From an uncultured Chloroflexia bacterium (GTDB taxonomy: Bacteria; Chloroflexota; Anaerolineae; B4-G1; SLSP01), in NCBI GenBank assembly GCA_963751345.1, contig CAVVUS010000002.1, positions 1 to 32,140 of the forward strand: 32,140 nucleotides of DNA, written 5' to 3'. The first letter of the stretch is position 1, and the number at the start of each line of letters is the position of its first letter. Below are positions 7,510 to 25,864 of this stretch, in pieces. The translations under genes were made by a program, and so were the position numbers. The notes beneath the pieces were generated by a model, which saw only the letters and a program-made list of their open reading frames with translations, was not told the origin of the DNA and made no database searches.

Positions 7510-7627
7510 CTCGGAGCTTCCGCACCTAGCAGAGTTCCTGGCCCAGCTAAGCGAGCGCTGGCAACGAATCCGCCCACGCTTTGCTGGTGCGGATGGTTTT
7601 GAACACTTTCGAGAAGGAGATGACCGT

Positions 7628-8638
7628 ATGATGAAGAAGTTTCTGAACAGACCTGAGGCGTTCGTTGATGAGATGTTGCAGGGCGTCCTGTCTGCACACC
7701 CTGACCAGCTGAAGAACGTTGCCAACGACCTGCGCTGCATCGTTCGGGCTGACGCACCAAAGTCCGGCAAGGTCGGTCTTTCGACCGGTGGTGGATCCGG
7801 TCACCTGCCGCTCTTTCTAGGCTATGTGGGGAAAGGGTTGCTCGACGGGTGCGCCGTGGGGGGTGTGTTCCAGAGCCCCGGCGCAGATCAGATGCTTGAG
7901 GTAACCAGATCGATCGACAGTGGCAAGGGCGTACTCTACATCTACGGCAACTATAGCGGAGATAGAATGAACTTCGACATGGCCGCCGAAATGGCGGACA
8001 TGGAGGACATCCGGGTGGAGTCCTACATCGCCGGCGAAGACGTGGCCAGCGCGCCCAAGGGAGAAGAGCATAAGCGCCGAGGCGTTGCCGGCATCTTCTA
8101 TGTCTACAAGTGCGCCGGAGCGAAGGCGGACGAGGGTGCCGACTTGGATGAGGTGAAGCGCATCGCAGAGAAGGCGGGCGCGAACGTGCGGACCATGGGT
8201 GTGGCGCTGTCTCCAGTGATCGTTCCAGAAGTTGGCAGGCCTTCGTTTACGATCGGCGACGGCGAGATGGAAATCGGCATGGGAATCCACGGCGAACCGG
8301 GTATTCGGCGCGGCAAACTGATGACAGCGGACGAAGTCGTGCAGGAGATGATGAACCAGATTCTGCCCGACCTTCCCTATCAGAGCGGCGACGAAGTCTC
8401 TGTCCTGATGAACGGTCTCGGTGCGACCCCGAAAGAGGAGCTCTACATTGCGTACCGCAAGGTGGCGGAGATTCTCAGTGAGAAGGGCATCTCGGTGTTC
8501 AAGGTCTACGTGGGCGAGTTTGCCACCTCGCTGGAGATGACGGGATTCTCCATTTCGGTATTCAAGCTCGATGATGAACTGAAGGGATTGCTTGCGAAGC
8601 CGGCATGCACGCCGTTCTTCGAGCAGACACAACTCTGA
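7628..8638 (+). CDS. dhaK: Dihydroxyacetone kinase family subunit DhaK (336 aa)
   Basis: MKKFLN, GGGSGHLP, NYSGDRMNF, RRGVAG, GMGIHGEPG, NGLGATP; GAAGGAG RBS. Confidence 0.92.
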   Translation: MMKKFLNRPEAFVDEMLQGVLSAHPDQLKNVANDLRCIVRADAPKSGKVGLSTGGGSGHLPLFLGYVGKGLLDGCAVGGVFQSPGADQMLEVTRSIDSGKGVLYIYGNYSGDRMNFDMAAEMADMEDIRVESYIAGEDVASAPKGEEHKRRGVAGIFYVYKCAGAKADEGADLDEVKRIAEKAGANVRTMGVALSPVIVPEVGRPSFTIGDGEMEIGMGIHGEPGIRRGKLMTADEVVQEMMNQILPDLPYQSGDEVSVLMNGLGATPKEELYIAYRKVAEILSEKGISVFKVYVGEFATSLEMTGFSISVFKLDDELKGLLAKPACTPFFEQTQL

Positions 8639-8650
8639 ACGGGAGGAGCC

Positions 8651-9271
8651 ATGTTGGATGTCTCGCAGGCGAAGGCCGCGTTGCACGCCGTCCGTCTCAC
8701 CATGGAAAAGAACCGCGACCGACTCATCGAGTTGGACAGCGCGGTTGGCGATGGAGACCTTGGTCTCACGATGTGTAAGGCGTTCGTGACTGCCGATCAG
8801 GAGCTGGCGGGATCCTCTGAGACCGATGTGGGGAAATTCCTGATGCAGGCCGGCATGACGATGGCGAGGGCAGCGCCTTCCACTATGGGAACCTTGATGG
8901 CTACAGGTTTCATGCGCGGGGGTAAGGCGCTCAAGGACAAGACCGAGTGTGCTCCGTCGGATATCGCCGCCTTCTTCCGAGCCTTCTCCGACGGGGTGAT
9001 GGAGCGCGGCAAGGCCAAACCGGGAAACAAGACCGTCGTCGACGTGCTGGAACCGGCCGCGGTGGCTGCAGAGAAAGCGGCAAGCAGCGGGGATATGGCC
9101 ACCGTTGCGGCAGCGATCCTCGACGCGGCACGAGAGGGCGAGGAAGCCGCGCGGGGCATGATGTCCGAGCATGGAAGGGCCGCGATCTACCGGGAGCAGA
9201 CGATCGGCAAACCTGATCCAGGTGCAGTTGCCGGGCGTCTGATGATCGAGGCCTTTGTTTCGGTGCTATAG
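8651..9271 (+). CDS. dhaL: Dihydroxyacetone kinase family subunit DhaL
   Basis: LDSAVGDGDLG, GKAKPGNKTVVD, GRA, PDPGA; GGAGGAG RBS; directly follows dhaK. Confidence 0.92.
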   Translation: MLDVSQAKAALHAVRLTMEKNRDRLIELDSAVGDGDLGLTMCKAFVTADQELAGSSETDVGKFLMQAGMTMARAAPSTMGTLMATGFMRGGKALKDKTECAPSDIAAFFRAFSDGVMERGKAKPGNKTVVDVLEPAAVAAEKAASSGDMATVAAAILDAAREGEEAARGMMSEHGRAAIYREQTIGKPDPGAVAGRLMIEAFVSVL

Positions 9272-9304
9272 TCCGGGAAGTTGTACTCTAGCGGGAGCCG
9301 GTGA

Positions 9305-9520
9305 CATGCCGAAATCCGGCGGATACTGAAGCTCTGCCGGCGGCCGGACGAGGCGTTCGCCTTCCGCGGATCGACGGAACTCATCCCCGGCGCCGAGCAA
9401 CCGGTGGTCAGCCCCGCGGCTGAGGATCTCATCAAGAAGGCTCTGCAGCCCCGAGACAAGCCGCTGTACGTGCTGACCATCGGGGCCCCGACCAATGTGT
9501 CGTCGGCCATCCTGACAGAA
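9305..9520 (+). pseudogene. Internal fragment of a nucleoside hydrolase (IU-NH family)
   Basis: Reads HAEIRRILKLCRRPDEAFAFRGSTELIPGAEQPVVSPAAEDLIKKALQPRDKPLYVLTIGAPTNVSSAILTE; PLYVxxIGAxTNVxSA is the nucleoside-hydrolase core motif; preceded by TGA, with no start codon and no N-terminal Asp-rich motif. Confidence 0.7.
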
Positions 9521-9531
9521 GCGCGATTTTC

Positions 9532-9738
9532 GGGGATCTATTCGCGAAGCGTCTCCGCTGGGAGGAGCACTCCGAAGCCTACTGGGAAGTAGTCGAACAC
9601 GCAGCCCGCGCTTACCGCGAGCACGGATTCTGGGGCGCTGTGGGACGCACGAATTCCGGACCGGGAGACCCAGTTTGGCAAGAGTACCCCAAGCGCCTCC
9701 GGCAAGTCAACGCCGTGTTCCTGAGCGAAGCGCCGTGA
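9532..9738 (+). pseudogene. C-terminal fragment of another protein, possibly cellulase-like/TIM-barrel glycoside hydrolase
   Basis: Different frame reads GDLFAKRLRWEEHSEAYWEVVEHAARAYREHGFWGAVGRTNSGPGDPVWQEYPKRLRQVNAVFLSEAP*; protein-like and Trp-rich, no start. Family call from recalled similarity only. Confidence 0.45.
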
Positions 9739-9794
9739 CGTCAACCGAACAGGCGGTGAGCAACCGGGGACGGGGCGATTCGCCTTGCGTGCGT

Positions 9795-11261
9795 CTACAG
9801 GAGGTACTCCATCTCCGGCCGCAACTCCCAACGCGCGGTCTCCGGTGGGCTGATCTGCCTCGTCCAGGCTTTGAGCAGCTCCGTAGCTTTGCGCTTCTCT
9901 CCCATCCTGTGCACCACGTGGTCGGGATCCCAATCCGCGAGGAGTTCCGCCATCAGCTCCTCACGAATCGGCTTGCATGCGGGGTCGTCTGCACGATCAT
10001 GCATCTCTTCCGGATCGTCCCCGAGGTTGAAGAGCTGCGGACGATCGCCGTGGTAGTAGATGAGTTTCCACGCATCCCGCCGTATCATCCGCTGGTAGCA
10101 GCCTCCCGGCGGACCGAAGAGATCGTCACAGTACTCGGAGAAGGCCAGGTCGTCCCAGGCCGCCGCATCCCCTTCGGTCAGCAGCTCGAGCATACTCCGG
10201 CCCTGGCACCCCGGCAGCGCCGGTGCGTCGAGCGCGTCGAGAATCGTGGCGGTACCATCGAGGGCGCTCACCACCCGATCGGACCGCATCCCCGCAGGAA
10301 TCCGGCCGGGCCAGCGGAAGATCAGCGGCACTTTCACCGACTCCTCGTAGAAGGTGTGTTTCCAGAAGAGCCCGTGCTCTCCGATACTGTCGCCGTGGTC
10401 GGAGGAGTAGACCACGAGCGTTTCCTGGGATAGCCCGGCGGCATCGAGCGCATCGAGCAGCCGGCCGATCATACCATCCAGGGCGTCGACCAGTCCGTAG
10501 TAAGCGGCGCGCGCGCGTGCGATCTCTTCCGGAGAAGCTTCGAACAGCTCGCCGTTCTCCATGCGCCATTTCAGGTGCGGGTGGATACGTTCGACCGGCG
10601 CACGCGGTTTCGCCGGCGAAGGGACGACATCGCGATACCGCTCGTAGAGCTCCTTGCCGGCAACGTACGGCGGGTGGGGAAGCATATAGCCTACGGTGAG
10701 GCAGAGCGGCTCTGGCGTGCCGCCGGTTGCCCTCTGCCGACCTGCAGCTTCGATGAAACGCACGGCAGCCTCGGTGACGTCCTCGTCGTGGACCTGGTAG
10801 CCGCTGGATCCGGGGCCGCTCGCCTGCAGGCTGATCCTGTGCGGCCCTGCCGTCCCCTGAGGGAGACCCCGTCGGGGCCCTTTGCCGCCGGGGTAGTTCG
10901 GGCTGTGGTCGCCGATTGGCCGCGCTGCGTAGCCGTGGAGCTGATCGGGACCGATGGCGTGCATTCTCCCGATGAGCGTCGGGCGGTATCCCGCGGCACC
11001 AAGTGAATGCGCGAGGGTAGGGATCCCGCTGTCGAGGATATGGTCGTTCGCCCATACCTCGTTCTGGTAGGGATGCCGGCAGGTGAGCGTCGACATCCGC
11101 GACGGGACGCAGATCGGCGACGGGCAGTAGGCGTTCGAGAAGAGCGCACCTTCGGCGGCGAGACGGTCGAGAGCGGCCGTTCGGATGACCGGGTCTCCGG
11201 CGCAGCCCATCACGTAGGGATTGTGCTGGTCGGAATGGATGTAGAGCAGGCCTGTCTTCAT
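9795..11261 (-). CDS. Formylglycine-dependent (Cys-type) sulfatase, choline-sulfatase-like (488 aa)
   Basis: SDQH, CVPSR (CxPSR), GRMH, PHPPY, SSDHG, YEESVKVP; GAAGGAG RBS before ATG 11261. Confidence 0.92.
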   Translation of the reverse strand: MKTGLLYIHSDQHNPYVMGCAGDPVIRTAALDRLAAEGALFSNAYCPSPICVPSRMSTLTCRHPYQNEVWANDHILDSGIPTLAHSLGAAGYRPTLIGRMHAIGPDQLHGYAARPIGDHSPNYPGGKGPRRGLPQGTAGPHRISLQASGPGSSGYQVHDEDVTEAAVRFIEAAGRQRATGGTPEPLCLTVGYMLPHPPYVAGKELYERYRDVVPSPAKPRAPVERIHPHLKWRMENGELFEASPEEIARARAAYYGLVDALDGMIGRLLDALDAAGLSQETLVVYSSDHGDSIGEHGLFWKHTFYEESVKVPLIFRWPGRIPAGMRSDRVVSALDGTATILDALDAPALPGCQGRSMLELLTEGDAAAWDDLAFSEYCDDLFGPPGGCYQRMIRRDAWKLIYYHGDRPQLFNLGDDPEEMHDRADDPACKPIREELMAELLADWDPDHVVHRMGEKRKATELLKAWTRQISPPETARWELRPEMEYLL

Positions 11262-11592
11262 ACGTTCTCCTTCAGCAGGAACACTCCTATGGTGCCAACG
11301 TCGGCAGCCCGAAGCGGGCATAGGGACCGTCCCAGCCCGTGGCAGTGAGCGGTGTCTCGCCACCGCGCTTGTCGGTTATGGTGGCGGCCTCGCAGAGGTA
11401 CGCAGCATCAGGGCGGCGTCCTCGCCACGGTTGACCGACGCGTTCAACAGATATCATAGCCGAGGTCCGGCACGAGTCACTCCGGAGGATGATATGGTGA
11501 CCTCGTTAGCGGGTATGGTCTACATCAAGCAGTGCCGCGGGTTCGCCGGCATCTGCGCCGCAGCCGACCGTACGGATGTAAGTCAAGGTCGA

Positions 11593-11757
11593 CAGCGAGA
11601 CCTGATGAAACTCATCGTGCAGCGCATGACTATCGATGGCGCGGGCGTCGTCGCGATGACACTGCGGCCGAATTACCAGCTCGTCTTGGGGCACAACACA
11701 AACGGGCCAACCGAATTCTCAGTTGACCCGTTCGTTTACAGGAGCGGGAGCGACGGG
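11593..11757 (+). pseudogene. C-terminal remnant of a large serine recombinase-family integrase
   Basis: QRDLMKLIVQRMTIDGAGVVAMTLRPNYQLVLGHNTNGPTEFSVDPFVYRSGSDG resembles the helix/beta-strand tail of resolvase-family integrases, with a GSDG ending as seen when such genes read into a tRNA att site; no catalytic domain upstream. Confidence 0.55.
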
Positions 11758-11782
11758 GATCGTTCCGCTACGGCGATCCCCG
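11754..11782. terminator. GC-rich hairpin downstream of the alpha/beta hydrolase
   Basis: CGGGGATCG-ttccgctacgg-CGATCCCCG perfect 9 bp stem, ~35 nt past the stop at 11816; no clear U-tract. Confidence 0.5.
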
Positions 11783-11815
11783 ATATCAGGCCCAACACGA
11801 AGATCACGATCAGAT

Positions 11816-13414
11816 CTACTCGTAGATGCAGGTGTCGTCCGGCGCGACGGAAGGATCCGCCAGGAACGCAAGGAACATCTCCTGTGGGCATCCTTTGACG
11901 GCCGTGGCGCCGTGGCCCACGCCGGGGTACTCGAAGGCGTAGGCGTGCGTGAGCGTCTCCGCGACATGGCGGCCCCAAGCCGGCGGCGTGATGGGGTCGA
12001 ATTCACCGGTCAAGATCAGGGTAGGGATGTCGCTGACGACCGGTTCGTTGGCTGAGGGCGCCGCTCTGCCCGCGTCCCAGCGCTCGCACACGCGGTAAGC
12101 CATCTCGCCGAGGAGGCCGTGAGCGAAGGTGCCGCTGAGCTCGGGATAGCGCACTTCGACGTCGCGCACGGCATCCGGTGAGCTGAACGCGATCTCTTCG
12201 TTACACTGCACCGAGAACATCATGCCCCGACTGGCAAAGGATTGCTGCGCCAGGAGGCCGCTGCGGAAGTTCTCCAACATGGCGAAGTCGCCGACGCTTG
12301 CATCGTAGATCAGGTCTGGGAGCAGGAGCTTCACCTCGGTGCTATAGAGGAACTGGAAGACCATGCCGGTTAGCAGGTCGCCGTCGATTATGTCCGGTAT
12401 CTCATCACCTGTTCTGAGATCGGTCATCGTCGAGGGGACGGGGTCGCGGTTGAGCCGGTCGACCGTCTCGAAGAAGGTGGCGCCAAGATCGGGATAGTTG
12501 GCGTTGCAGACCGGATTGGCGGCGCAGCTCTCAAAGAGCCGGTCCAACGCCCGCTCGAAGTTGGCCGGCGTCTCGGCATAGAGGTCGACGTCGGGTGGAT
12601 AGACGGCATCGAGCACGACGCTGCGCAGCCGGCCTCCGTCTTCCGTCTCCGCCGTCTGGCGCATGACCTCCAGCGCCAGGCGCGTCCCATAGGAACCTCC
12701 CCACAGGCTGACCTGATCGTAGCCGAGGCCGCGGACCAGGTCCAAGATGTCGCGTGCGCTCTCGGCGCTGTTGTACGCGCTCAGATCGGCGCTCTGACCC
12801 AGTCGCTGCCCACAGGCGACAAAGGCCTCGACCAGGGCGGTTTGGGCTTCATCTTTACTTACCGTGCGACCTTCGATCCGGCGGTCGACGAGTTCCAGCG
12901 CCATCTCATCGGCCTCGGGGCAGTCCAGGGCGGGGCGTGAACGGCCCACGCCGCGCTGGTCGAAGACGACGAGATCGTGCCCCTGTGCCAACACGGCTTC
13001 GAAGGCCTGCGGCATCTCGTAGCGCAGGGCCTCGAGCGCACTCGCGCCCGGCCCGCCGGACAGGTAGATCACCGGGTCGCGTGGCTCGCTCGCCTCAGCG
13101 CCACGGAACACCGCGACGGCGAGGCGGATCACCCGCCGGTCGGCCCGTAACGTGTCATCTCGACGCTCGGGTACCGTGAGTGTAGCGCATTCGACGTCCT
13201 CTCCTTGTTCGATGCCACTGGGGAGCGCGAAGGCGCACGGGCCTGGGACCAGTGACCCGACCTCGGCGGGGAAGGTCGACGGCGCTGCCGCCGCCGTGCT
13301 TGGTGGTGTAGGTGGTGCTGCCGGGCTGCAGCTCATAACCAGAAATGCGACAAGGATGAGTGCGCGCCACGAAGACGACCGTGACGCGACGGTAAGGACG
13401 TCACACATTTGCAT
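11816..13414 (-). CDS. Lipoprotein alpha/beta hydrolase (TAP-like, peptidase S33-related)
   Basis: Signal peptide with lipobox LVMSC and Pro/Ala linker; SGGPG, FDQRGVG, nucleophile GGSYG, FDPITPP, GVGHG triad motifs. Confidence 0.9.
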   Translation of the reverse strand: MQMCDVLTVASRSSSWRALILVAFLVMSCSPAAPPTPPSTAAAAPSTFPAEVGSLVPGPCAFALPSGIEQGEDVECATLTVPERRDDTLRADRRVIRLAVAVFRGAEASEPRDPVIYLSGGPGASALEALRYEMPQAFEAVLAQGHDLVVFDQRGVGRSRPALDCPEADEMALELVDRRIEGRTVSKDEAQTALVEAFVACGQRLGQSADLSAYNSAESARDILDLVRGLGYDQVSLWGGSYGTRLALEVMRQTAETEDGGRLRSVVLDAVYPPDVDLYAETPANFERALDRLFESCAANPVCNANYPDLGATFFETVDRLNRDPVPSTMTDLRTGDEIPDIIDGDLLTGMVFQFLYSTEVKLLLPDLIYDASVGDFAMLENFRSGLLAQQSFASRGMMFSVQCNEEIAFSSPDAVRDVEVRYPELSGTFAHGLLGEMAYRVCERWDAGRAAPSANEPVVSDIPTLILTGEFDPITPPAWGRHVAETLTHAYAFEYPGVGHGATAVKGCPQEMFLAFLADPSVAPDDTCIYE

Positions 13415-13417
13415 AGC

Positions 13418-14519
13418 TCATCTCTGGACGCGGCGCACCCGCCATGCGATCAGTCCTGCTGCGACCACAAGGCCGCCCGCGAGGCGGGCAACCGGGCCAA
13501 GCCAATCCTGGGGACGCACAGTGCGTAGCGTGGTCAAGGTCAAGGCCTCCCCGAAAGCCGCGCTGGGGAGCCAATCCATCAGAAGGCTGAGCGCCCTGGG
13601 GGCCTCGATCGTCGATCAGGCCACCCAAGAGCGCCGGCACCAACAGGATCATCAACAGCAACCCGACCCCGAGATTCACAGATGACGGGTTATCGATGAA
13701 GGTGCCCATCAGCAGGCCGATGGCGACAGCAAAGCCGGCGCCAAGGGCAAAGACCAGGAGCAGCAGCCACCCGTGGACGAACCACCTGGCGCCAAAGGCA
13801 TAGACGACCACCGCGGCACAGGTGCAGTAGAAGAGGCCGGTGAGGGCCTTTCCAAGGACCACCTGTCCATAGCCCGCGGGTGAGACGAGGAGCGCGTCCA
13901 GCGTGTGGCTCTCCTTCTCCTCTACCAACAGCATCGGCACAAGTGTTAGCCCTATGGTCAGGATGACCATCGATGCCGAACTGGTGACCATCGTGTGCTG
14001 GCCAAAGGTACCGGGCACGGGATAGGCCCTCCGGTCATCGATCACGATCGTGATCTCCTGCCACGTGGCCTGCGCCAGCTGTTCCTCGAAAAACGAGGCC
14101 AATTCGCTTGCCTGCCGGGCGGTGGCCCAGTGGGGGACGATCCCCTCCAGAGTCACCGGCGCTTCGCCGGCACCCTCCGAGGCCCCCGCGAACCCTGCCG
14201 GGAGGATCAGCCCAAGTCGTAGCTCGGACGAACTCCCAACGGCTTCCTCGAGCTCCTCGACCGAATCCACGATTCCCACGGAGAACTCCTCGCGCGCGGT
14301 CAACGCCCGGATCAGCGCAGATCGCCCCGGATCGTAGATGATGGCGGTCGGTTTCGATCTGAGCCGGATCAGAAGGGGCAGTGCCATCGAGGAGAGCATC
14401 AGTACCGCCGCTCCGAGTATGATGGAGATCGTGGCGCGGTTCCGAATAGCGTCCCCGATGTCTTTGCCCGCGATCGATATCACAATGCTAAGCTTGGTTG
14501 GTACGTCGTGTCCCGTCAT
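13418..14519 (-). CDS. ABC-2 type permease no. 3 (~366 aa), +1 frameshift near 13600
   Basis: KDIGDAIRN, EEKESHTLDALLVSPA; removing one base at the G-run 13598-13602 gives a hydrophobic tail RALSLLMDWLPSAAF...LIAWRVRRVQR* matching its paralogs; GGAGGAGG RBS. Confidence 0.85.
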
Positions 14520-14536
14520 GCGTCTCCTCCTCCGCG

Positions 14537-15631
14537 TCAGGCCCGATCCATTCGGCGAACGGCCCAGATGACCAGACCAAGTGCCCCGGCGGCATAGGCC
14601 GCCAGTACCAGCAGCGGTCCCAGCCAATCTGCGGCGACGATAGCGCCCGCGAAAGACGTCCGAATGAGCCTGAACATCACGGTGATGGGGGTCCACGAGA
14701 GAACGCTCACCAGCGCGGTGGGAATCAGCTCCTCGAGCAGGTAGAGCATCATCGACAGCAGCAGGGGGGCGGTCAGGACCCAGCCCCAGAGCATCAGCTG
14801 CTGTCGCGACTCGAGGAGCGTCCCAAGCAGCAGCCCCAGCGATACCGCGAAGAGTGCGCCGGTGACGGCAGTCGCGATGGCCACATCCCAATGCACCATC
14901 ACCGACCCATTGGCGATGAAGCTGATGAGGCCCCCCAGTGTCGCGTAGAACAGCCCGGCGATGGCTTTGCCCTCGACGACCTGGGCAGCGGAGGCCGGGG
15001 AGACCAGAACGGCGTTTAGCGTTCCCGCCTTCTTCTCGTCCAGCATCAGGCTAGGCGGCAGCATCAGCGCCAGGAGCAGCAGGACGTAGACCGTCGATAT
15101 ACCCAGCGACACGCTGCGCCCACCGGCGTCGGGCCTTGGGTAGACCCGCTCTTCCGCCATTCGCACCGGGATTACGGTCCCCAGCGCGGCGGAGATTTCG
15201 CCCTCGGCCAGCTGCTGTAGCCGCCGGACGTCGTCCGGCTTGACCCAGTGAAGCGTGTAGCCCACCAGATTGGGCATCCCTCCCGCGCCGAGGACAGCGT
15301 CGAAGTCCGCCGGAATCACCAACCCGAGGGCCGGTGCCTCTTCGTGTGAGAGGCGATAGCGCATGGCCTCCCCGTCCTGGGAAACGGTTCGTACATCGAA
15401 CACCGAGCTGTTCTCCAGCATCGGCGTGAGCGCCGCGTCGCCGGCGTCGTAGATGACCAACGTGGGCGGATCGAGGCGGTCGATCAGTGGCAAGGCGCGG
15501 TATAGGGCGACGACGAAGATCGCCGAAAACAGCAATCCCACGACGACCTTGTTCCGGACGGCCTCGATAATGTCCTTCCATGCAATGGCCGAGACGATAC
15601 GCACGTGGGTGCGTAGCCGTGATTCACGCAT
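14537..15631 (-). CDS. ABC-2 type permease no. 2 (364 aa)
   Basis: KDIIEAVRN, one TM, large extracytoplasmic loop, DEKKAGTLNAVLVSPA, five further TMs. Confidence 0.9.
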   Translation of the reverse strand: MRESRLRTHVRIVSAIAWKDIIEAVRNKVVVGLLFSAIFVVALYRALPLIDRLDPPTLVIYDAGDAALTPMLENSSVFDVRTVSQDGEAMRYRLSHEEAPALGLVIPADFDAVLGAGGMPNLVGYTLHWVKPDDVRRLQQLAEGEISAALGTVIPVRMAEERVYPRPDAGGRSVSLGISTVYVLLLLALMLPPSLMLDEKKAGTLNAVLVSPASAAQVVEGKAIAGLFYATLGGLISFIANGSVMVHWDVAIATAVTGALFAVSLGLLLGTLLESRQQLMLWGWVLTAPLLLSMMLYLLEELIPTALVSVLSWTPITVMFRLIRTSFAGAIVAADWLGPLLVLAAYAAGALGLVIWAVRRMDRA

Positions 15632-15663
15632 TAGTACTCTCCCTATCTTATATACCGTGTCCG

Positions 15664-16767
15664 TCACCGGTCTGTGGACCGGCGGACCGACCCTACCACC
15701 GCGACTATCGCTGCGGCACCGGAAGCCACTAGCGCGACCAGGTACGGCAGCCAATCTGAGAGTGTAATCGTTCCAGCACACGCCGTTCGTGTAAGGTTGA
15801 GCATCAGTGTGGTGGGTACCCAGCGGAAGACGCTGACCACGACCGGAGGCATCAGCTCAGCCAAGAGGGTCACCATCATAGACAAGAGCAGAGGTCCCAT
15901 GACGACCCAGGCCCAGAGCATCATCTGCTGCCGCGACTCAAGCACGGTACCGAGTAATAGGCCCAGGCTGACGCTGAAAATGCCTCCGACAACGGCAGTG
16001 ACCACGGCAAGTCCCCAATGGACGACGACGACCGAGTTGATCGCAAAGGCGATGGCGGCGCCGACGAGGGTATAGAAGAGACCGCATGCCCCCTTGGACA
16101 GCGTGACGTGCGTGGCCGTGGCCGGCGAGACGAGTAGAGCGTCGAGGGTCCGGTTCTGTTTCTCCTCCACCATGAGATTCTGGGGGAGCGTCAACCCGAT
16201 CACGGTGGTGACGTACGCCAGGGTAAGGCCAACCGTGGTCGACCAACCATGCGACGTGGGTAACGCGTAGATGCGATGGTCGGATAACCTGACATCGACG
16301 GTGAGGCCCAGCAGGGCTGCCAGCTCGCCCTCCATACGCGTCTGGAGCCTGCCGGCGTCACGTCGGCTCACCCAGTACTGGGTGTAGGCTGTCAGCGGCG
16401 GCGGCGTGCCCGCCTCGAGCAGCCCGTCGAAGTTCTCAGGGATGACCAGACCCAACTCGGCGACGTCATCATCTACGACGCGTTCCAGCATCGCCTCAAC
16501 AGAGGGATAGCCGCTGTACGCGTCCAGGTTGGCGCTGTTCTCGACCAAGGCCACGAGGGCTGAGTCGCCCGCGTCGTAGATGCGCACCGGCATCTCCGTA
16601 AGGTCCGTGCGAAGCATAGGCAGCGCCCAGTAGAACACCACCAAGAGCAGCGAGGTCACGACAACGGTTAGGGCGTTCTTGTTGCGTACCGCCTCCCAGA
16701 TGTCCTTGGTTGTGATGGCCCAGATGATCCGGGCATCGGTCGTCAGTCTGCACTGTGACATAGACAT
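15664..16767 (-). CDS. ABC-2 type permease no. 1 (367 aa)
   Basis: KDIWEAVRN, EEKQNRTLDALLVSPA, same topology as the other two. Confidence 0.9.
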   Translation of the reverse strand: MSMSQCRLTTDARIIWAITTKDIWEAVRNKNALTVVVTSLLLVVFYWALPMLRTDLTEMPVRIYDAGDSALVALVENSANLDAYSGYPSVEAMLERVVDDDVAELGLVIPENFDGLLEAGTPPPLTAYTQYWVSRRDAGRLQTRMEGELAALLGLTVDVRLSDHRIYALPTSHGWSTTVGLTLAYVTTVIGLTLPQNLMVEEKQNRTLDALLVSPATATHVTLSKGACGLFYTLVGAAIAFAINSVVVVHWGLAVVTAVVGGIFSVSLGLLLGTVLESRQQMMLWAWVVMGPLLLSMMVTLLAELMPPVVVSVFRWVPTTLMLNLTRTACAGTITLSDWLPYLVALVASGAAAIVAVVGSVRRSTDR

Positions 16768-16810
16768 CTACCCCCGTGATGATCGAGTGTCCGGTGACCG
16801 GGACTCATCT

Positions 16811-17551
16811 CTATTCCTCAAACTGCCCGCGCAACGGGTTGCCGGTCAGGGCGACGAAAACATCCTCCAGCGTCTCCCCGTGCTGAGCCTTCAGCGCGGT
16901 AGGAGTGTCCAGCGCCACGATGCCGCCCTGGTGCAGGATGGCGACGCGGTCCGAGAGACGGTCGGCCTCCTCCATATAATGCGTGGTCAGGAAGACCGTG
17001 ACGCCCTGATCGGTCAGTCCGGCCACGAAGGTGCGGATATCACGTGCCACGTTGGGATCCAGGCCGCGCGTGGGCTCGTCCAGGAAAAGCACGCTGGGCT
17101 CGTGAAGTAGGGCTCGCGCAATCAGAAGGCGCTGCTTCATCCCATTTGAGTAGGTCTTCACCTTCTTTCGGGCGTGAGGTGCCAGGCCCAAGAGATCCAG
17201 GACTTGGTCAACGCGGCGCCCATTTACACCATACAGCCTGGCCGAGAAGACGAGGTTGTCGCGGCCCGTCATACGCTCGTAGATGTTCTGGTGTTCGAAG
17301 ACCACGCCGATGTGGGCCTGGAGGCGCGGTCGCTCGTTGACGACGTCATAGCCCAGCACCTGGGCTGTGCCACCCGTGGGGCGCAGTTGGCCTGTGAGTA
17401 CCTTGATCGTCGTCGTCTTGCCGGCGCCATTGGGTCCAAGGAACCCGAACACTTCGCCTCGGTTGACCTCGAAGCTGATCCCGCGGAGCGCGTGTACGGC
17501 GCCGTAGTCGCGTGTCAAGCCCCGGACGGATATGGCTGGTTGAGTTGTCAT
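16811..17551 (-). CDS. ABC exporter ATP-binding protein (246 aa)
   Basis: Walker A GPNGAGKT, signature YSNGMKQR, Walker B LFLDEP, H-loop TTH; GAGGAG RBS. Confidence 0.95.
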   Translation of the reverse strand: MTTQPAISVRGLTRDYGAVHALRGISFEVNRGEVFGFLGPNGAGKTTTIKVLTGQLRPTGGTAQVLGYDVVNERPRLQAHIGVVFEHQNIYERMTGRDNLVFSARLYGVNGRRVDQVLDLLGLAPHARKKVKTYSNGMKQRLLIARALLHEPSVLFLDEPTRGLDPNVARDIRTFVAGLTDQGVTVFLTTHYMEEADRLSDRVAILHQGGIVALDTPTALKAQHGETLEDVFVALTGNPLRGQFEE

Positions 17552-17575
17552 AGCGTTCTCCTCTGCTTTTCCTCC

Positions 17576-17604
17576 AGTATAGAGAACCGCGCAGACCGCC
17601 GCAA
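17576..17604 (-). promoter_or_regulatory. Sigma70-type promoter of the ABC exporter operon
   Basis: Minus strand TTGCGG-17 bp-TATACT, 25 nt upstream of the ATPase start. Confidence 0.65.
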
Positions 17605-17614
17605 CATATCTGCC

Positions 17615-17705
17615 GCGAATGGCGTCGTGGGTGGGGTGAATGGCGCCGGGAGACGCTGAATGGAGTAACTGACCGTCGAGTGGCGGCAACCAACGCCCGA
17701 GCAGG
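17615..17705 (-). promoter_or_regulatory. Direct-repeat array, candidate LytTR binding sites
   Basis: Plus-strand cores GAATGG at 17617, 17638, 17658, GAGTGG at 17678 and degenerate GAGCAG at 17699; spacings 21, 20, 20, 21 bp; immediately upstream of the -35 box. Confidence 0.7.
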
Positions 17706-17842
17706 AAGCTCAGACCACGTGGACACGCAATCGTGCGGCGCCTAGGATCGCCCCCACGGCCCTCTTACCCATATTCCCGAGCTGCGCCCGATTTCCGGTC
17801 GCCACGGGCGAAGGACTGAAAGCCAACGCCTGTCCACTGCTG

Positions 17843-18844
17843 CTAGTACCCAGCAACTCACGGAGTTCCGCCGCCGAGCTCTTGCTCAGCGGGATCTCGG
17901 TCTCGTCGGCATCGTCGAGGATCAGGCTGAAGGCGTTGCGCGTGTAGGGGATCACCGACTTCACGTGTTGAAGATTGACGAGATAGCTGCGGTGCGCACG
18001 GAAGAACCCGCGGTTGGACAGACGCTCCTCGAGTTCGCCGAGCGTGAACTGTGTCGGCAGCTCGCCCGTGGTGGTCCGCAGAAGGCTGCGGCCCTCGGCA
18101 GCGGCTGCGAAGAGGATGTCTGAGGGGGTGATCAGGGCGACCTCTCCCTCCAGGCGCACCGGGATCTTCAGCGGGGGCGCCGCCGCAGCATCGCCGCCAG
18201 GCTCGCGCGCCGCCACGATCCGCCCACGCTCCATGGCGTAGATCACATCACACAATCGGGTCAGGTTGGTGGCATCGTGCGCGAGGATCAGCACGGGCTG
18301 GCAGTCGGGCGTCCCCGTCGGCCAGGGCGCGGATGCGACGGGCCATCAGCTCCACAGTCGCATCATCGCAACCCGCGAACGGCTCGACGAGCACAAGGAC
18401 CCGGGGCGCGTGCAGGATGGCGCGCCCGAAGGCGAGCCGCCGTTGTAGACCCGGCGCGAGGTCCTGTGCTATGACGTCCGCCTGGTCTGCCAGTCCCACA
18501 TCGAGGAGCGTGGCGTCCGCGCGGGTCTTGGGGAGCCCGCGCAAGCGGCAGTCAAACCGGAGGTGCCCCCGGGCCGACCTCCGCGGATAGAGGGCGTTTT
18601 CGGCGAAGAGCACGCCCAGGGCGGCGCTCAGTTGGGTGTGTGAGGTCGCCGGGTCGATGCCGTCCACGCGAATCGTCCCTGCGGTTGGGCGCGTTCGCCC
18701 GAGCAGAAGGTCGAGCAGCAGGTCAGTGCCGCTGCCCGGCAAACCGACAACAGCCGCGATCTCGCCTGCGCCGACATGCAGGCGATCGATCTCGAGTTCC
18801 GGTCTGCCATCCACTACCTTCTGTACCTGGTCGAGGTCGATCAT
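17843..18844 (-). CDS. Degenerate ABC-ATPase domain fused to a LytTR DNA-binding domain (~333 aa; indels near 18296 and 17850)
   Basis: ORF 18248-18859 is an ABC NBD lacking its last strand and H-loop, which begin ORF 17710-18294 (VLILAHD), followed by LytTR (FTLGELEERL, FFRAHRSYLVN, IPLSK). One extra C (GCCC GTG) splits them; one missing G hides the natural end ELLGY* (TAG 17843-17845). Confidence 0.85.
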
Positions 18845-18882: not shown

Positions 18883-18910
18883 ACCATAGCGCAGGCTTCC
18901 GAGGTGTCAA
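18883..18910 (-). promoter_or_regulatory. Promoter of the ATPase-LytTR fusion gene
   Basis: Minus strand TTGACA-16 bp-TATGGT. Confidence 0.5.
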
Positions 18911-19141: not shown

Positions 19142-20041
19142 ATGAAGAAGCTACTGATTTCCGTTGCTCTGATGCTCATCGTTGCTGTTGCGTTGGCCGG
19201 ATGTGGGGGCGGTGCTGCATTGGGCACCGAGAACAACCCCATCGTCTGGGCATTCGTGCCTTCCGGGGAGACCGCGACGGTCACCACAGGGGCAGAGGAC
19301 ATCGCGAATCTGTTGCAGGACGAGACCGGCTATGTCTTCAAGATCCTCGTGACCACGGAGTACGCCGGTGCGGTTGAGGCAATGTGTAGCGATCCGCCTG
19401 AGGCACAGATGGCATCGCTCAACACTTTCTCCTACGTGCTGGCCAACGAGCGCTGCGGTGTGGAGGCCAAACTCGTCGCGACGCGCTTTGGCACTGCATC
19501 GTACAACGGACAGATCATCGTGAAGGCTGACAGCGGTATCATGGGACTCGCCGATCTCGCCGGCAAGACGTTCTGCCGGCCTGACCCGCTCTCGACCAGC
19601 GGTTGGATCATCCCCTCGCTCTACCTTCGCGCAGCCGGGGTCAACCCGGACACGGACCTGGCCGAAGTGGTGGATGCGGGCTCCCACGATGCCGTGGTTG
19701 CGGCTGTCTACAATGGCGACTGCGACGCCGGTGCGACCTATGTGGATGCTCGCACGACGCTGGAGGCCGATCATCCTGACGTGATGGACGTGCTCACCGT
19801 GATCTGGATCTCCGACGATATCCCGAACGATGGTGTTCAGTTCGTCAAGGGCATGGATCCTGCGATGGAGGACAAGGTCATCCAGGGGCTGCTCTCGCTG
19901 ACCCAGTCGGACGCGGGGCTAGCCGCGCTGGACACCGCGTATAGCTGGGGCGGCCTGGAGGAGCACGGCGACTCGTTCTACGACCCCTTCCGCCAAGTGC
20001 TGCAGGCCTCAGGAATGAGCATCGAGCAGTTGACACAGTAG
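19142..20041 (+). CDS. phnD: Phosphate/phosphite/phosphonate ABC substrate-binding lipoprotein
   Basis: Lipobox LAGC, AFVPS, DPLSTSGWIIP, GSHDAVV, IPND. Confidence 0.9.
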   Translation: MKKLLISVALMLIVAVALAGCGGGAALGTENNPIVWAFVPSGETATVTTGAEDIANLLQDETGYVFKILVTTEYAGAVEAMCSDPPEAQMASLNTFSYVLANERCGVEAKLVATRFGTASYNGQIIVKADSGIMGLADLAGKTFCRPDPLSTSGWIIPSLYLRAAGVNPDTDLAEVVDAGSHDAVVAAVYNGDCDAGATYVDARTTLEADHPDVMDVLTVIWISDDIPNDGVQFVKGMDPAMEDKVIQGLLSLTQSDAGLAALDTAYSWGGLEEHGDSFYDPFRQVLQASGMSIEQLTQ

Positions 20042-20074
20042 ACGTGACCTGACCCCTCATCGGGGTCGAAGTCT

Positions 20075-20103
20075 GCAAAGGGGGGACTCTGTCCCCCCTT
20101 TGC
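20075..20103 (+). terminator. Intercistronic hairpin between phnD and phnC
   Basis: GCAAAGGGGGGAC-tct-GTCCCCCCTTTGC perfect 13 bp stem; a second small stem GACCCC/GGGGTC at 20051-20067; typical mRNA stabiliser or partial terminator after a binding-protein gene. Confidence 0.65.
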
Positions 20104-20126
20104 GCAACTCGGGGAGGAACGTCGAG

Positions 20127-20921
20127 ATGCTTGAGGTCAAACATCTGACCAAAGTCTACGAGGACGGGACTGTCGCACTCAGGGACGTCAGTTTCACCGT
20201 CAAGGACGGCGAGTTCCTGATTGTCATCGGCCTGAGCGGCTCGGGTAAGTCGACCCTGCTTCGCTGTATCAACCGGCTGGTCGAGCCGACGGAGGGCCAG
20301 ATCATCTGGGATGGCGAGGACATCACGGCGGCCGACCAGGCGCAGCTTCGCCTGATCCGGCGGCAGATCGGCATGGTCTTCCAGCAATTCAACCTCGTGA
20401 AGCGGTCGAAAGTGATCGCCAACGTCCTGAACGGACGGCTGGGCTACGTGAATCAGTGGCGGAGCCTCATCCGGGGGATGTCCAGGAAGGATGTCGAGAT
20501 GGCGTGGGCGGCCCTCGAGCGGATGGGGATCACCGATCAGGCTCAGAAGCGGGCCGATGAGCTGAGCGGAGGCCAGCAGCAGAGGGTCGGCATCGCGCGG
20601 GTGCTGGTCCAGGAGCCGAAGATCATCCTGGCTGACGAGCCTGTCGCGAGCCTCGACCCGGTACTGGCACACTCGATTCTCCAGCACCTGGAGGATCTGA
20701 ACCAGGAGGAGGGCATCACCGTTGTCTGCAGCCTCCACTACCTCGACCTCGTCCAGCGGTATGCCACGAGTGTGATCGGTCTGCGCGATGGTGAGATCGT
20801 CTACAAGGGAACACGCGCCGACATCCGGGCCATGACCGACCAGCAGTTCAGGGACATCTACGGTGAGCAGGCGGAGCGTGTGGGCGGCGGCCTTGAGGGT
20901 ACGGTCGGAGGTGCAATATGA
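20127..20921 (+). CDS. phnC: Phosphonate ABC transporter ATP-binding protein
   Basis: GLSGSGKS, VFQQFNL, LSGGQQQRV, LADEPVASLDP; GGAGG RBS. Confidence 0.93.
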   Translation: MLEVKHLTKVYEDGTVALRDVSFTVKDGEFLIVIGLSGSGKSTLLRCINRLVEPTEGQIIWDGEDITAADQAQLRLIRRQIGMVFQQFNLVKRSKVIANVLNGRLGYVNQWRSLIRGMSRKDVEMAWAALERMGITDQAQKRADELSGGQQQRVGIARVLVQEPKIILADEPVASLDPVLAHSILQHLEDLNQEEGITVVCSLHYLDLVQRYATSVIGLRDGEIVYKGTRADIRAMTDQQFRDIYGEQAERVGGGLEGTVGGAI

Positions 20922-22465
20922 CGACGGTCAGGCGTACTCCGGATGACAGGTCGGATTCCTCTCGTGTCCCGTCCGGGCCGCCGAGCCTGGTGTCTGCACC
21001 TCTCGCCGCGATCGCAAGTCTTATCATCCCGGGTCTTGGCCAGATCCTCGGGCGCCACCTGCGCCGGGGTCTGATTCTCCTGGGATCGGTCGTCACGATC
21101 ATCCCGCTTCTCGCATGGCGGATCGACCTGATCACGACCAGGCAGATCGGGGTTGCGGCGAAATACGGCCATGCGCTCGCCCGCGAACCGTTCTTCATCG
21201 GGTTGCTGACGGTCGGGATTGTGCTCCTGTGGCTATGGAATGTGTGGGACGCCTACAATCTGGCTCGGCCCGCGGGGCGGGGAGGGGCTGCGATCTTCCT
21301 GTTGATCACGCTGCTCTTCTTCGCGCTCGGATGGCAGATCAGCGAGATCAACCCCTACAAGGCTGTGACGGAGCTGTCGGATACGTGGCCGCTGCTCTCC
21401 AGGGTCCTGTGGCCGTGGCAGGCCGCGGTAACGCGAGAGACCGCGACGGTCTCAGCGTCGGCGGACATACAGGTGCCGTGCACAGACACTCCGCCGCCCC
21501 CGTCGGTTGAGACGCCCGGCAAGCCCTATCTGGTGGCCGAGCCAACCTGCGGCAATCTGTCCGAGTTGGACGAGAACAACAATATCATCCCGGGCACCAA
21601 GCTCCATCTGACCGGTGGCAATTTCGAGCCACGTACGGAGACCCAGATCTGGTGGAAGGACCCCATCAGCAATGAGTTTCAGGTGCGCGAGGGCGGGGAG
21701 TACGTGTCCCTGCTGACGGATGACGCGGGTAGCTTCGAGGTCGACATCATCATGCCCTACCGGCTGCTTCCGCCCAGCGCCACGGGGCCACAGATCAATC
21801 AGGTGCAGGCGCGGCAGGTCTCCGACGTCGGGCCCCTGGTCCCCAGCGAGCCGCTCAAGTTGAGCGTCGAGCGGATGGTGGAGACTATCTTCCTGGGCAT
21901 GATGGCCACCGCCTTTGGAATCGTGCTGGCTGTGCCGGTCAGCTTCCTGGCGGCCCGAAACCTCATGTCACACTCGCCGATCACGCTGGTGATCTACTAC
22001 ATCACCCGTACGATCCTGAACATCGTGCGCTCCATCGAGCCCTTGATCTGGGTCATCATCGCGACGCAGTGGGTGGGGCTCGGGCCCTTCGCGGGCATCA
22101 TCGCGCTGACGATCCACACGATGGCGGCGCTGGGCAAGCTCTACTCGGAGGCCATCGAGGGCATCGACCCGGGCCCCATCGAGGCGGTGCAGGCCACGGG
22201 GGCGACGCGGCTGCAGACCATCAGGTACGGCGTGATCCCGCAGATGATCCCGCCCTTCGTCTCCTTCTCCATCTACCGCTGGGACGTCAACGTCCGGATG
22301 TCCACGGTGATCGGTATGGTCGGCGGTGGTGGCATCGGCTTCATCCTGATCCAGTACATCCGGCTGCTGAACTTCCGCGCTGCCGGAATCGCGGTCTGGT
22401 TTATCGCCATCACGGTTGCGATCCTGGACAACGTGAGTGCCGAGATTCGGGAGAAGTACACGTAG
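20918..22465 (+). CDS. phnE: Phosphonate ABC permease with long N-terminal extension (515 aa)
   Basis: C-terminal ETIFLG, RSIEPLIW, GLGPFAG, GKLYSEAIE, YRWDVNVRMSTVIGMVGGGGIG; ATGA overlap with phnC. Confidence 0.9.
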   Translation: MTTVRRTPDDRSDSSRVPSGPPSLVSAPLAAIASLIIPGLGQILGRHLRRGLILLGSVVTIIPLLAWRIDLITTRQIGVAAKYGHALAREPFFIGLLTVGIVLLWLWNVWDAYNLARPAGRGGAAIFLLITLLFFALGWQISEINPYKAVTELSDTWPLLSRVLWPWQAAVTRETATVSASADIQVPCTDTPPPPSVETPGKPYLVAEPTCGNLSELDENNNIIPGTKLHLTGGNFEPRTETQIWWKDPISNEFQVREGGEYVSLLTDDAGSFEVDIIMPYRLLPPSATGPQINQVQARQVSDVGPLVPSEPLKLSVERMVETIFLGMMATAFGIVLAVPVSFLAARNLMSHSPITLVIYYITRTILNIVRSIEPLIWVIIATQWVGLGPFAGIIALTIHTMAALGKLYSEAIEGIDPGPIEAVQATGATRLQTIRYGVIPQMIPPFVSFSIYRWDVNVRMSTVIGMVGGGGIGFILIQYIRLLNFRAAGIAVWFIAITVAILDNVSAEIREKYT

Positions 22466-24167: not shown

Positions 24168-25864
24168 TCAGACGCTCTTTCGTAGCAGATACTTTCCGAT
24201 GACCAGGGCATCGAGCCCCGAATTGTAGAAGCAGGCCACCGCTTCCTTGGGCGTGCAGACAATCGGCTCGCCGCGCACGTTGAACGAGGTGTTGAGCACG
24301 ACAGGCATCCCCGTTCGCTCGCCCAGGTGTTCCAGCAGCCTGTAGTAGAGCGGATTGCTCTCACGGGTGACGGTGTGCAGACGCGCCGTCCCGTTCACGT
24401 GGGTGATCGCCGGGAGCCGCTCGCCCACACCGGCGCGCACCGGCGCGACGCGCAGCATGTAGGGCGAGCGGCCCACGTCCTCGAAGTAGGTGTCGCTGGC
24501 CTCCTCGAGCACCGAGGGTGCGAAGGGCCGGAAGGGCTCGCGGAACTTGACCGCAGCGTTGATGCGCTCTTTCATGTCGGCCCGGCGCGGGTCGGCCAGG
24601 ATGCTGCGGTTGCCCAGGGCACGCGGGCCCGAACTCCAGACGTCCCTGGAACCAGCCAACGATCTGGCCCTGCGTCACAAGGTCGGCAGCGGTCGCAGCG
24701 GGATCGTCGAGCCGCTCGTAGTCGAGCTTGCCCAGGCGAAGGTGTTCCTCGATCTCCTCGCGAGCTGTATTCCGGCCCAAGGTAGACGTGGGCGAGCGGC
24801 TCGCGGGCGGCGTTCCCCAGGGCCGTGTGGTAGGCGTAGAGCGCCGCACCCAGCGCGCAGCCCGCGTCGTTGGCCGCCGGCTGGATGAAGATCCGGTCGA
24901 AGGGACCCTGTTGTGCGAGCTTGCCGTTGGCGGCGCTGTTGAGCGCGACCCCACCGGCCATGCAGAGGTTCGATAGCCCGGTGCGCTCGTGGAGGTGATC
25001 GACCAGGTGGAAGAGCGCCTCCTCCAGCCGCTGCTGGACGCTGGCGGCCAGATCCGCGTAGGGCTGCGGCGGCATGTCGGTCGTGGTCGACGGCGGGCCG
25101 AAGACCTCTTCCATGTAGGGGCTGTACCAGGTGGATCGACCATAGTCGTGGTGGAAGTTGAAGTACCGCAGGTCGAGCCGGTGCTGCGCCCCGTCGGCCA
25201 GGAGCAGGACCTCGCGCAGGCGTTCGTCGAAGCGCGGCTCGCCGAAGGCGGCCAGGCCCATCACTTTGTACTCGCCATCGAAGGGATTGAAGCCCAGGTA
25301 CTCGGTGAAGGCCGAGTAGTAGAAGCCAAGGGAGTGGGGGAAGCTGACCGATTCGAGTGCCTCCAGGCGGTTGCCCGCGCCCCGGTAGAGCGAGGTCACC
25401 GGCCATTCGCCCATCGCGTCCACGACGAGCACGGCGGCCTCGTCGAACGGTGAGACATAGAAGGCGCTGGCAGCGTGAGCGAGGTGGTGCGGCACGAAGA
25501 CGACGCGCGTGCGGGCCGGGAGCTTCAGCTCGTATCGGGCATAGGCGGGCGGCGCGAGATACCACACGCGTCGCGCGAGCTCGGCCAGTGCGATGAAGTT
25601 GGCCCTAGGGAAATGGCGGAGAGCGTGCCAGATGCCGCGTCCGAGTCCCACCGTCGGCGAGAACGAGAACGCGACCACGTCCACGTCGTCCGGGGTCACG
25701 CCGCCCGCCTCCAGGCAGTAGCGTGCCGCGCGTGCGGGGAAGGCGAACGGGGCGTGCTTGATGCGGCTGAGCCGTTCCTCCTCGACCGCCGCGACCAGCC
25801 GCCCGTCCTGCAGCAGGCTCGCGGCGCTGTCGTGCTCGCCCCAGTTGATGCCCAGGATGTTCAT
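24168..25864 (-). CDS. NodU/CmcH-family carbamoyltransferase (~564 aa), two +1 frameshifts near 24762 and 24627
   Basis: HDSAA, EEERLSRIKH, HHLAHA, EYKVMGLA, GGVALN, QPAANDAG, then [40 protein letters not shown] across three frames; GGAGG RBS. Confidence 0.88.

Follow-up and report, generated by a model that had tools for sequence, protein, structure and literature searches.

The window analysed here is a stretch of 32,140 nucleotides (nt) from an uncultured Chloroflexia bacterium (GenBank assembly GCA_963751345.1, contig CAVVUS010000002.1, positions 1 to 32,140), and this work concerns a gene on its reverse strand (17843..18844, about 333 codons) in which a degenerate ATP-binding cassette (ABC) ATPase domain is fused to a LytTR DNA-binding domain. 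Downstream on the same strand lie genes for an ABC ATPase, three permeases and a hydrolase. An original prediction, made from the sequence alone, had described the fusion as a regulator without a kinase and had proposed that its dead ATPase domain makes the adjacent transporter itself the sensor. From the domains of the gene, its homologues and a set of direct repeats ahead of the ATPase gene, we consider it very probable that the fusion activates the adjacent exporter operon without a kinase; the idea that its ATPase domain reads the transporter is put forward more tentatively.

The fusion gene and its family

The extent of the fusion gene was established by tblastn, Pfam searches and alignment of homologues. 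Its N-terminal part (18323..18844, reverse strand) is a degenerate nucleotide-binding domain (NBD), identified by alignment, by family statistics and by a Pfam ABC_tran match (E-value 2.9e-17, 64 bits against a cutoff of 25) in the open reading frame (ORF) at 18859-18248 (reverse strand). The remainder (17848..18294, reverse strand) holds the H-loop segment VLILAHD, a linker and the LytTR domain, and is 81-83% identical to its closest homologues. The Pfam LytTR match, in an overlapping ORF at 18294-17710 (reverse strand; 2.1e-23, 82.8 bits against a cutoff of 22.6), covers positions 3-97 of the 98 in the model, in agreement with the earlier description of this domain as intact, and by the curated cutoff the window protein is a member of the LytTR DNA-binding domain family (PF04397). 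Only ABC_tran and LytTR were matched in the two ORFs, with no Pfam match to a Response_reg (receiver) domain in either. The nearest kinase is a hybrid histidine kinase (31160-27996, reverse strand) that carries its own receiver and lies about 9 kb away, past a divergent phosphonate importer, and the Pfam scan agrees with the earlier statement that a receiver domain and an adjacent kinase are absent. The window protein is not a two-component response regulator of the LytR/AgrA type, which would have a receiver and a cognate kinase.

Intact orthologues align by tblastn to the window in frame -1 over 18844-18323 and in frame -2 over 18294-17848. The first break is a single-base indel between 18323 and 18294, at a ccc run, and the second is a single-base indel within 17850-17843 (ggtactag), where the homologues imply tt: they end in ELLGY followed by a stop, and the window sequence continues as ELLGTSSS, a TAG being present at 17845-17843 in a frame shifted by one. 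The tblastn frames and the ends of the homologues agree that 17843-18844 is one ABC-LytTR gene with two single-base indels, as had been proposed. Programmed frameshifting was considered as an explanation and ruled out, since the homologues encode the protein in one frame. The gene has a promoter-like site, TTGACA-16 nt-TATGGT, at 18883..18910 (reverse strand), which matches the consensus at 10 of 12 positions and is one of three sites returned by a promoter scan of the region, where 0.3 were expected.

A word-indexed search with the LytTR piece as query gave 1334 matches, of which the best 119 were assessed, the window's own ORF being excluded. Both Pfam domains were found in 110 of these 119 homologues, which are 263-339 amino acids (aa) long and mostly 329-336, and those fusions that were aligned are continuous proteins of 327-339 aa that start with MIxL and share the ELLGY ending. 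The continuous ABC_tran-LytTR ORF that the original prediction called for is thus the usual form among the best matches. The ABC_tran call was missing in the other 9; 7 of them were aligned and proved to be N-terminally truncated fusions that start inside the ATPase domain. Split forms, with separate ATPase-like and LytTR genes, were therefore rejected for the matches aligned, including those 7 short ones, with P0073 and P0120 falling outside the alignment. Among contigs of one genome per species, 490 stretches encode a relative of the fusion, and 80 of these were kept for locus statistics (the L-numbered loci); the 80 come from metagenome-assembled genomes of Chloroflexota, mostly Anaerolineae, apart from one record titled only "uncultured bacterium". 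The ESM Atlas, looked up with P0066, holds 8 clusters with the ABC_tran-LytTR architecture, one of them mostly from Bacillota, and among the best 150 matches of an exhaustive profile search, 58 were representatives of 300-430 aa, of which 56 carry a LytTR domain.

The window fusion reads GLPGSGTD at Walker A, VLFAEN in the Q-loop region, LAPGL at the signature, VLVLVEP at Walker B, GCD at the D-loop and LILAHD at the H-loop, and the four degenerate motifs quoted in the original prediction (GLPGSGTD, VLFAE, LAPG and VLVLVEP) are all present in the translation. When it was assessed as a catalytic ABC ATPase, the window fusion had the fold-level match and lacked proper Walker A, Walker B and signature/Q-loop motifs, with no Gln anywhere in its Q-loop region. 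Degeneracy was then counted over 183 distinct sequences of the fusion family. The Walker A Lys is retained in 112 and lost in 71, and the Ser/Thr that follows it is retained in 39 and lost in 144. Asp is absent from the eight commonest residues at the Walker B position, which together cover 167 sequences (Val 96, Ala 23, Glu 14 and Phe 11 among them), and the next position is acidic in 174 (Glu 135, Asp 39). The family signature reads L-[PS]-[SP]-G-L, and the H-loop position is Asp in 110 sequences and His in 15. The claim of a conserved catalytic loss consequently stands for the Walker B Asp and falls for the Walker A Lys, and the H-loop His said to be kept is indeed present in the window protein, as a trait of its subclade and not of the family. 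Among 56 diverse representatives, the full set of GK[ST], D-E, canonical signature and H-loop His occurs in none; GK[ST]T and DEP are both retained in 6, which have neither the H-loop His nor a canonical signature. Judged by these residues, the input domain of the fusion cannot be a working ATPase.

The invariant columns of the fusion lie in the D-loop, in the helix after the signature and in the segment after the Q-loop, and on this alignment evidence the catalytic residues drift freely while interface-type positions stay fixed. In the D-loop, Cys is present in 182 of the 183 fusions and Asp in 181 (about 18375-18370 in the window), where the partner ATPase has Leu-Asp; a near-invariant Cys at an NBD-NBD interface might have a redox or metal role. 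The best NCBIfam matches of the dead domain are PQQ_ABC_ATP and drrA, its best solved relatives are the NBDs of ABCA3/4/1/7, and its structural neighbours in the ESM Atlas (query P0066) are LnrL-, bacitracin- and DrrA-type ATPases. By these matches the dead domain is of the DrrA/ABCA class, which pairs with ABC-2 permeases. We found no study of ABC_tran-LytTR fusions in the open full-text literature, subscription-only papers, including the original LytTR domain papers, lying outside that search, and within that scope the result agrees with the original prediction, which knew of no mechanistic characterisation. The family is large and uncharacterised, and Pfam-based annotations already list its architecture.

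The downstream operon and its predicted operator

The first downstream gene (16811..17551, reverse strand) encodes a true, DrrA-like ABC ATPase (Pfam ABC_tran 1.7e-34) with the motifs GPNGAGKTT, YSNGMKQR and LFLDEP and an H-loop His, which scores 277.6 bits against the NCBIfam drrA subfamily, under the cutoff of 312. Across 67 loci the partner ATPase has GPNGAGK[TS]T in 65, [YFL]S[NHS]GM[KR]QR in 66 and DEP in all 67. Three ABC-2 permease genes follow, all on the reverse strand: permease 1 (15664..16767; Pfam ABC2_membrane_3 7.9e-20, hydropathy, 62% identity to the orthologue at locus L002), permease 2 (14537..15631), which Pfam and tblastn identify as a paralogue of permease 1 (46-47% identity in cross-matches), and permease 3 (13418..14519), which tblastn follows through one frameshift, in frame -3 and then in frame -1. 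All three match ABC2_membrane_3 or ABC2_membrane_2 above cutoff, and not FtsX, and in their hydropathy profile a hydrophilic stretch of about 125 aa separates the first transmembrane (TM) segment from the later ones. The last gene (11816..13414, reverse strand) encodes a lipoprotein alpha/beta hydrolase of the TAP-like (peptidase S33) type (Abhydrolase_1 6.4e-17, Abhydrolase_4 (TAP-like) 6.7e-15), and a signal peptide and Cys were present in 10 of the 10 orthologue N-termini examined. Pfam thus identifies every member of the gene order given earlier for the cluster, from the fusion through the intact ATPase and the permeases to the exported hydrolase, and by the criteria tested the downstream genes appear to encode an ABC-2 exporter (type V, DrrAB/ABCA-like).

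Conservation of this arrangement was assessed at 73 loci with at least 1.5 kb of sequence downstream of the fusion, an ATPase orthologue being counted when it was at least 55% identical to the window ATPase and encoded within 1 kb. Such an orthologue is present at 66 loci, where 120-830 nt separate the fusion gene from the ATPase gene. Permease and hydrolase genes were counted at the 41 loci with the ATPase and at least 6 kb downstream: two permease genes are present in 26, three in 9, four in 4, one in 1 and none in 1, so that 39 have two to four, and the synteny can be called conserved, as the original prediction anticipated. Locus L002 is a full orthologue of the window cluster (ATPase 83-85% and permeases 62-69% identical). 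In a quick tree of 30 loci (the even-numbered ones of the 66) and 15 flank ATPases, the fusion and ATPase subtrees have several subclades in common. At five loci (L005, L008, L022, L049 and L075) a conserved additional ORF of about 185-200 aa, with a hydrophobic C-terminus and the motif WKQ..FGA..FEL.AG, separates the ATPase gene from that of the first permease; it is not present in the window.

Between the fusion and ATPase genes lies a predicted operator (17612..17686, reverse strand), absent from the original prediction and first seen in this analysis by reading the sequence and by a DNA pattern search. It consists of three direct repeats of CCATTC[AG] (17663-17657, 17643-17637 and 17622-17616), spaced 20 and 21 bp apart and scoring 16.9, 18.6 and 11.8 bits with a position weight matrix (PWM), with a weak fourth site (17686-17673) 20 bp further upstream. 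The spaced pair pattern occurs in the window at the operator alone, with 2 overlapping matches where 0.02 are expected. The proximal box stops 12 nt short of a weak -35 hexamer, TTGCGG (17604-17599), which is followed after 17 nt by TATACT (17581-17576); read from the sequence, this is a candidate activator-dependent promoter (17576..17604, reverse strand). A GAGGAG ribosome-binding site stands 6 nt before the ATPase ATG at 17551. The layout in the window is, on its sequence features, the classical arrangement of LytTR sites, with direct repeats about 21 bp apart near a promoter, and we regard it as a predicted operator.

The same boxes recur across the family. Chains of at least two C[AG]TTC boxes at the set spacing are present in 39 of 71 fusion-to-ATPase intergenic regions, where shuffled sequence gave 0.3 on average; as controls, none was found in 73 regions upstream of the fusion or in 66 coding regions, and 2 of 71 were found on the reverse strand. 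Spacings of 19-23 bp were allowed, and only 21 bp (36 times) and 20 bp (16 times) occurred. The box consensus, GC[GT]CC[AG]TTC[AG]nC, is also conserved at positions beyond those that the search imposed. With a leave-one-locus-out PWM, pairs of at least 8 bits were found in 48 of 71 intergenic regions and in 0 of 72 and 0 of 66 controls. Scanned over both strands of all 80 loci (1,075,289 nt), the PWM returned 68 pairs of at least 9 bits, every one, by its coordinates, on the fusion strand and downstream of the fusion stop. At L041 the box pairs stand ahead of a displaced ATPase gene. The adjacent operon is, as far as these sites indicate, the target of the regulator and its sole target within the flanks examined. 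Because a LytTR-type operator before the ATPase gene is conserved family-wide, the regulator would be tied to exactly this transporter.

Two other explanations for the intergenic region were considered. Autoregulation through boxes before the fusion gene was rejected, as none was found in the window and pairs are present in 0 of 73 related regions, and a riboswitch or leader was dropped after an Rfam scan of the window returned no RNA family. In some loci the distance from the boxes down to the ATPase start is as much as 260-800 nt. The gap between fusion and ATPase genes is 680-830 nt in L023, L024, L034, L036, L038 and L079, the boxes standing directly after the fusion stop in L038 and near the ATPase gene in L079; in L038-like loci the ATPase gene is thus preceded either by a long leader that is not translated or by a small gene that the annotation lacks. 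Elsewhere in the window, the hybrid kinase gene contains a single box match (28261-28274, forward strand, 16 bits) and a weak pair (29487-29521, forward strand, 7.9 and 7.5 bits), which are probably chance matches in GC-rich coding DNA.

Proposed mechanism and competing readings

In the mechanism we propose, the fusion would act in the cytoplasm as a one-component transcription factor whose gene has a promoter of its own, and several copies of the protein would bind the three or four in-phase direct repeats through their LytTR domains. The repeats adjoin the weak -35 of the next operon, and binding would switch on the true ATPase, the three ABC-2 permease paralogues and the lipoprotein hydrolase. 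The pseudo-ATPase domain would act as an input and oligomerisation module, the signal being protein contact with the transporter, either with the coupling helices of the permeases or with the true ATPase, and the amount of free, DNA-binding regulator would depend on the number and state of the transporters. We hold with considerable confidence that the protein is a LytTR regulator of the adjacent operon acting through the CCATTC repeats. The explanation as a whole, a dead-NBD LytTR activator of the adjacent operon with transporter contact as its likely signal, is one that we favour on balance, and the step in which the dead domain contacts the transporter is, taken by itself, a tentative suggestion. 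Its specific form, that the dead domain sits where an NBD docks on the ABC-2 permeases, or covers the true ATPase as a cap, and that transporter abundance and conformation thereby set the level of free LytTR factor, is possible and is offered with reserve.

Contact with the transporter appears to be the most likely signal because the domain cannot hydrolyse ATP and, in the window protein, probably cannot bind it. Nucleotide-driven dimerisation cannot serve as the signal family-wide, because in the window protein the Walker A Lys and the Ser/Thr next to it are both missing. Transporter contact also seems the best reading because the domain is of the DrrA/ABCA class, is co-inherited with one ATPase-permease set and has conserved interface positions. 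Activation by tandem copies is suggested by boxes that lie upstream of, and in phase with, a poor -35. The fusion, its degeneracy, the operator and the synteny are shown in silico; activation rather than repression, and contact with the transporter, we infer.

One close relative bears on how far regulator and transporter travel together. Locus L001 matches the window in gene order on either flank (85-94% nucleotide identity) of a variable island (4571-17845 in the window, 10009-15165 in L001). The window island, of about 13 kb, holds GH31, Dak1/Dak2, sulfatase, hydrolase and transporter genes, and the L001 island, of about 5 kb, holds a remnant ATPase/permease ORF, a DrrA-like ATPase with an ABC-2 permease, and a DUF1254 gene. 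The remnant ORF, behind the fusion gene, joins the N-terminus of an ATPase to the C-terminus of a permease, with one strong box left, and the L001 fusion gene, at the edge of the island, is intact and only 75% identical to that of the window. Outside the island and divergent from the fusion gene, the window carries a phosphonate-type ABC importer (19142-22462, forward strand), with a Phosphonate-bd lipoprotein, an ATPase and a BPD_transp_1 permease; its ATPase is 96% identical in protein sequence to the L001 counterpart, and the importer appears unrelated to the fusion system.

We would like to note that several observations weigh against the proposed mechanism. L001 keeps an intact fusion with its transporter genes reduced to a remnant, so a regulator can outlive its presumed partner, at least for a while, and 7 of the 73 loci (L001, L025, L031, L041, L059, L070 and L073) have no orthologous ATPase within 1 kb. 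The hydrolase gene comes after the permease genes in just 7 of 41 loci, because of which we treat it as accessory and no longer, as the original prediction had it, as part of the core mechanism. A box pair of at least 8 bits is missing from 23 of 71 intergenic regions; the -35 and -10 of the operon were not called by the promoter scan, the -35 matching the consensus at 3 of 6 positions; and the choice of activation over repression has the position of the boxes as its single ground. Loss of the Walker A Lys is not family-wide, the residue being retained in 112 of 183 sequences. Finally, the quick tree, with its long stem, does not resolve whether the dead domain descends from the partner ATPase.

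The frameshifts raise the separate matter of whether the window copy is functional. At least four single-base breaks occur in the 32-kb window, two in the fusion, one in permease 3 and one in a carbamoyltransferase gene, all at short base runs (ccc, the implied tt, ccccc and gggccc). The permease 3 break, which the earlier description of the locus did not include, takes the gene from frame -3 to frame -1 near 13600-13566, beside the ccccc run. A break at gggccc near 24625 divides the carbamoyltransferase gene (24171-26023, reverse strand) between Carbam_trans_N (26023-24575) and Carbam_trans_C (24674-24171). Because the indels hit unrelated genes, and do so at base runs, both frameshifts in the fusion gene are most likely assembly errors. 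The locus might instead be decaying, with real frameshifts that make pseudogenes of the regulator and permease 3 in this organism. Three of the four window indels fall inside this 7-kb cluster, which counts against our explanation and in favour of decay, as does the position of the region in a variable island whose relative L001 lacks the transporter. A fourth indel of the same kind, however, splits the unrelated carbamoyltransferase, all four stand at short base runs, and outside the indels the frames are clean, at 72-83% identity to intact orthologues and with no internal stops; decay is accordingly improbable.

The remaining alternatives concern what the dead domain does and the sign of the regulation. 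The domain may serve only for dimerisation or as a sensor of a small ligand and never touch the transporter, which would then be merely the target operon. We regard this as rather doubtful. Such an autonomous regulator would suit a gene with its own promoter, 120-830 nt from the operon at the 66 loci, and the survival of the fusion at L001 without a transporter; some family members may also bind nucleotide, given the Lys noted above and the GK[ST]T and DEP of 6 in 56 representatives, and the near-invariant D-loop Cys-Asp fits a conserved homodimer interface. Nucleotide is nevertheless not the signal family-wide, with Lys lost in 71 and Ser/Thr in 144 of 183 sequences and the Walker B Asp outside the residues found in 167, and the linkage to one ATPase with ABC-2 permeases (66 of 73 loci), together with the matching NBD class, goes unexplained beyond the adjacency of a target. 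A closer bond to the transporter would exist if the fusion were the second, degenerate NBD of an asymmetric pump, with LytTR as a moonlighting appendage. Two or more distinct permease paralogues would suit an asymmetric complex, and the dead domain shows conservation at positions of its coupling region and D-loop. In known asymmetric NBD pairs, however, the degenerate NBD gives a canonical signature to the consensus site, and here the fusion's own signature is degenerate (L-[PS]-[SP]-G-L), so that both sites would be impaired; the motifs of the ATPase, signature included, are invariant, as expected of a homodimer. Because the signature is degenerate and the gene, with its own promoter, lies outside the operon and upstream of the operator, a pump of ATPase plus fusion is very unlikely. 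The protein could also bind the repeats as a repressor, shutting the operon off until a signal releases it, and the distance of the boxes from the ATPase start in some loci (260-800 nt) makes their relation to the promoter unclear there. In the window, by contrast, the boxes are upstream of a poor -35, in phase with it, and stay clear of the -35, the -10 and the start, and LytTR boxes likewise lie upstream of the -35 in the activator-dependent promoters of AgrA, ComE and AlgR. We therefore think repression unlikely, and activation with transporter contact is the reading carried forward below.

Related systems and implications

With the LytTR response regulators AgrA, AlgR, ComE and NatR, the window fusion shares the LytTR domain and direct repeats about two helical turns apart by a -35, and the core CC[AG]TTC resembles the AlgR site, which we take to be CCGTTC. 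In contrast to them, it has a pseudo-ATPase as its input domain, no receiver and no cognate histidine kinase. In the proposed control of transcription by transporter state, through protein contact on the cytoplasmic side, it would resemble MalK-MalT and Bce-type flux sensing. In MalK-MalT control of the maltose regulon, where transporter state governs how strongly transport genes are transcribed, the NBD works as an ATPase and acts on an activator that is a protein of its own, whereas here the NBD is dead and is joined to the DNA-binding domain in one polypeptide. Bce-type flux sensing (BceAB-BceS) combines an FtsX-type permease of 10 TM segments with an intramembrane-sensing kinase and an OmpR-type regulator; the present cluster has ABC-2 permeases and no kinase, and is not a Bce module. 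The asymmetric heterodimeric ABC exporters with one degenerate ATP site (TM287/288, TAP1/2 and CFTR) are alike in having an NBD with a non-canonical Walker B and H-loop beside a canonical partner, but in the fusion the signature is degenerate too, as Walker A often is, and the protein has no TM domain and carries a DNA-binding domain.

The closest described systems are the LytTR regulatory systems of Streptococcus mutans (HdrRM, BrsRM and relatives), described (PMC6193735) as regulators without receiver or kinase that are inhibited by a membrane protein and use direct repeats, some such systems being co-transcribed with ABC transporter genes. The fusion has in common with them a LytTR regulator without receiver or kinase and the use of direct repeats. 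It differs in having no small membrane inhibitor gene next to it and a fused dead ATPase domain instead, and its operator stands before the transporter operon and not before the regulator's own gene (0 of 73). With an ATPase behind an intergenic operator as the next gene and no autoregulatory repeats, the cluster does not appear to be a LytTR regulatory system of this kind. The contact logic that we propose would resemble MalK holding MalT, or the membrane inhibitor of a LytTR system holding its regulator.

Known couplings of transport to transcription use kinases (Bce), separate activators (MalK-MalT) or membrane inhibitors (LytTR regulatory systems), and a dead ATPase domain and a DNA-binding domain in one polypeptide would be the shortest such circuit. 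The source records name these fusions "ABC-2 type transport system ATP-binding protein" or "LytTR family ... domain-containing protein", and the ATP-binding name is misleading. The family forms a natural series of catalytic decay in an NBD, from members that retain GK[ST]T and DEP to members that retain nothing. It poses the biochemical question of what the pseudo-ATPase binds, and it now has a concrete and testable regulon of one operator and one operon. If the proposed mechanism is correct, the fusions would represent a kinase-free, transporter-tethered form of one-component signalling, a mode not yet described, and one that could be widespread, given the 490 loci in species genomes and the related Bacillota clusters.

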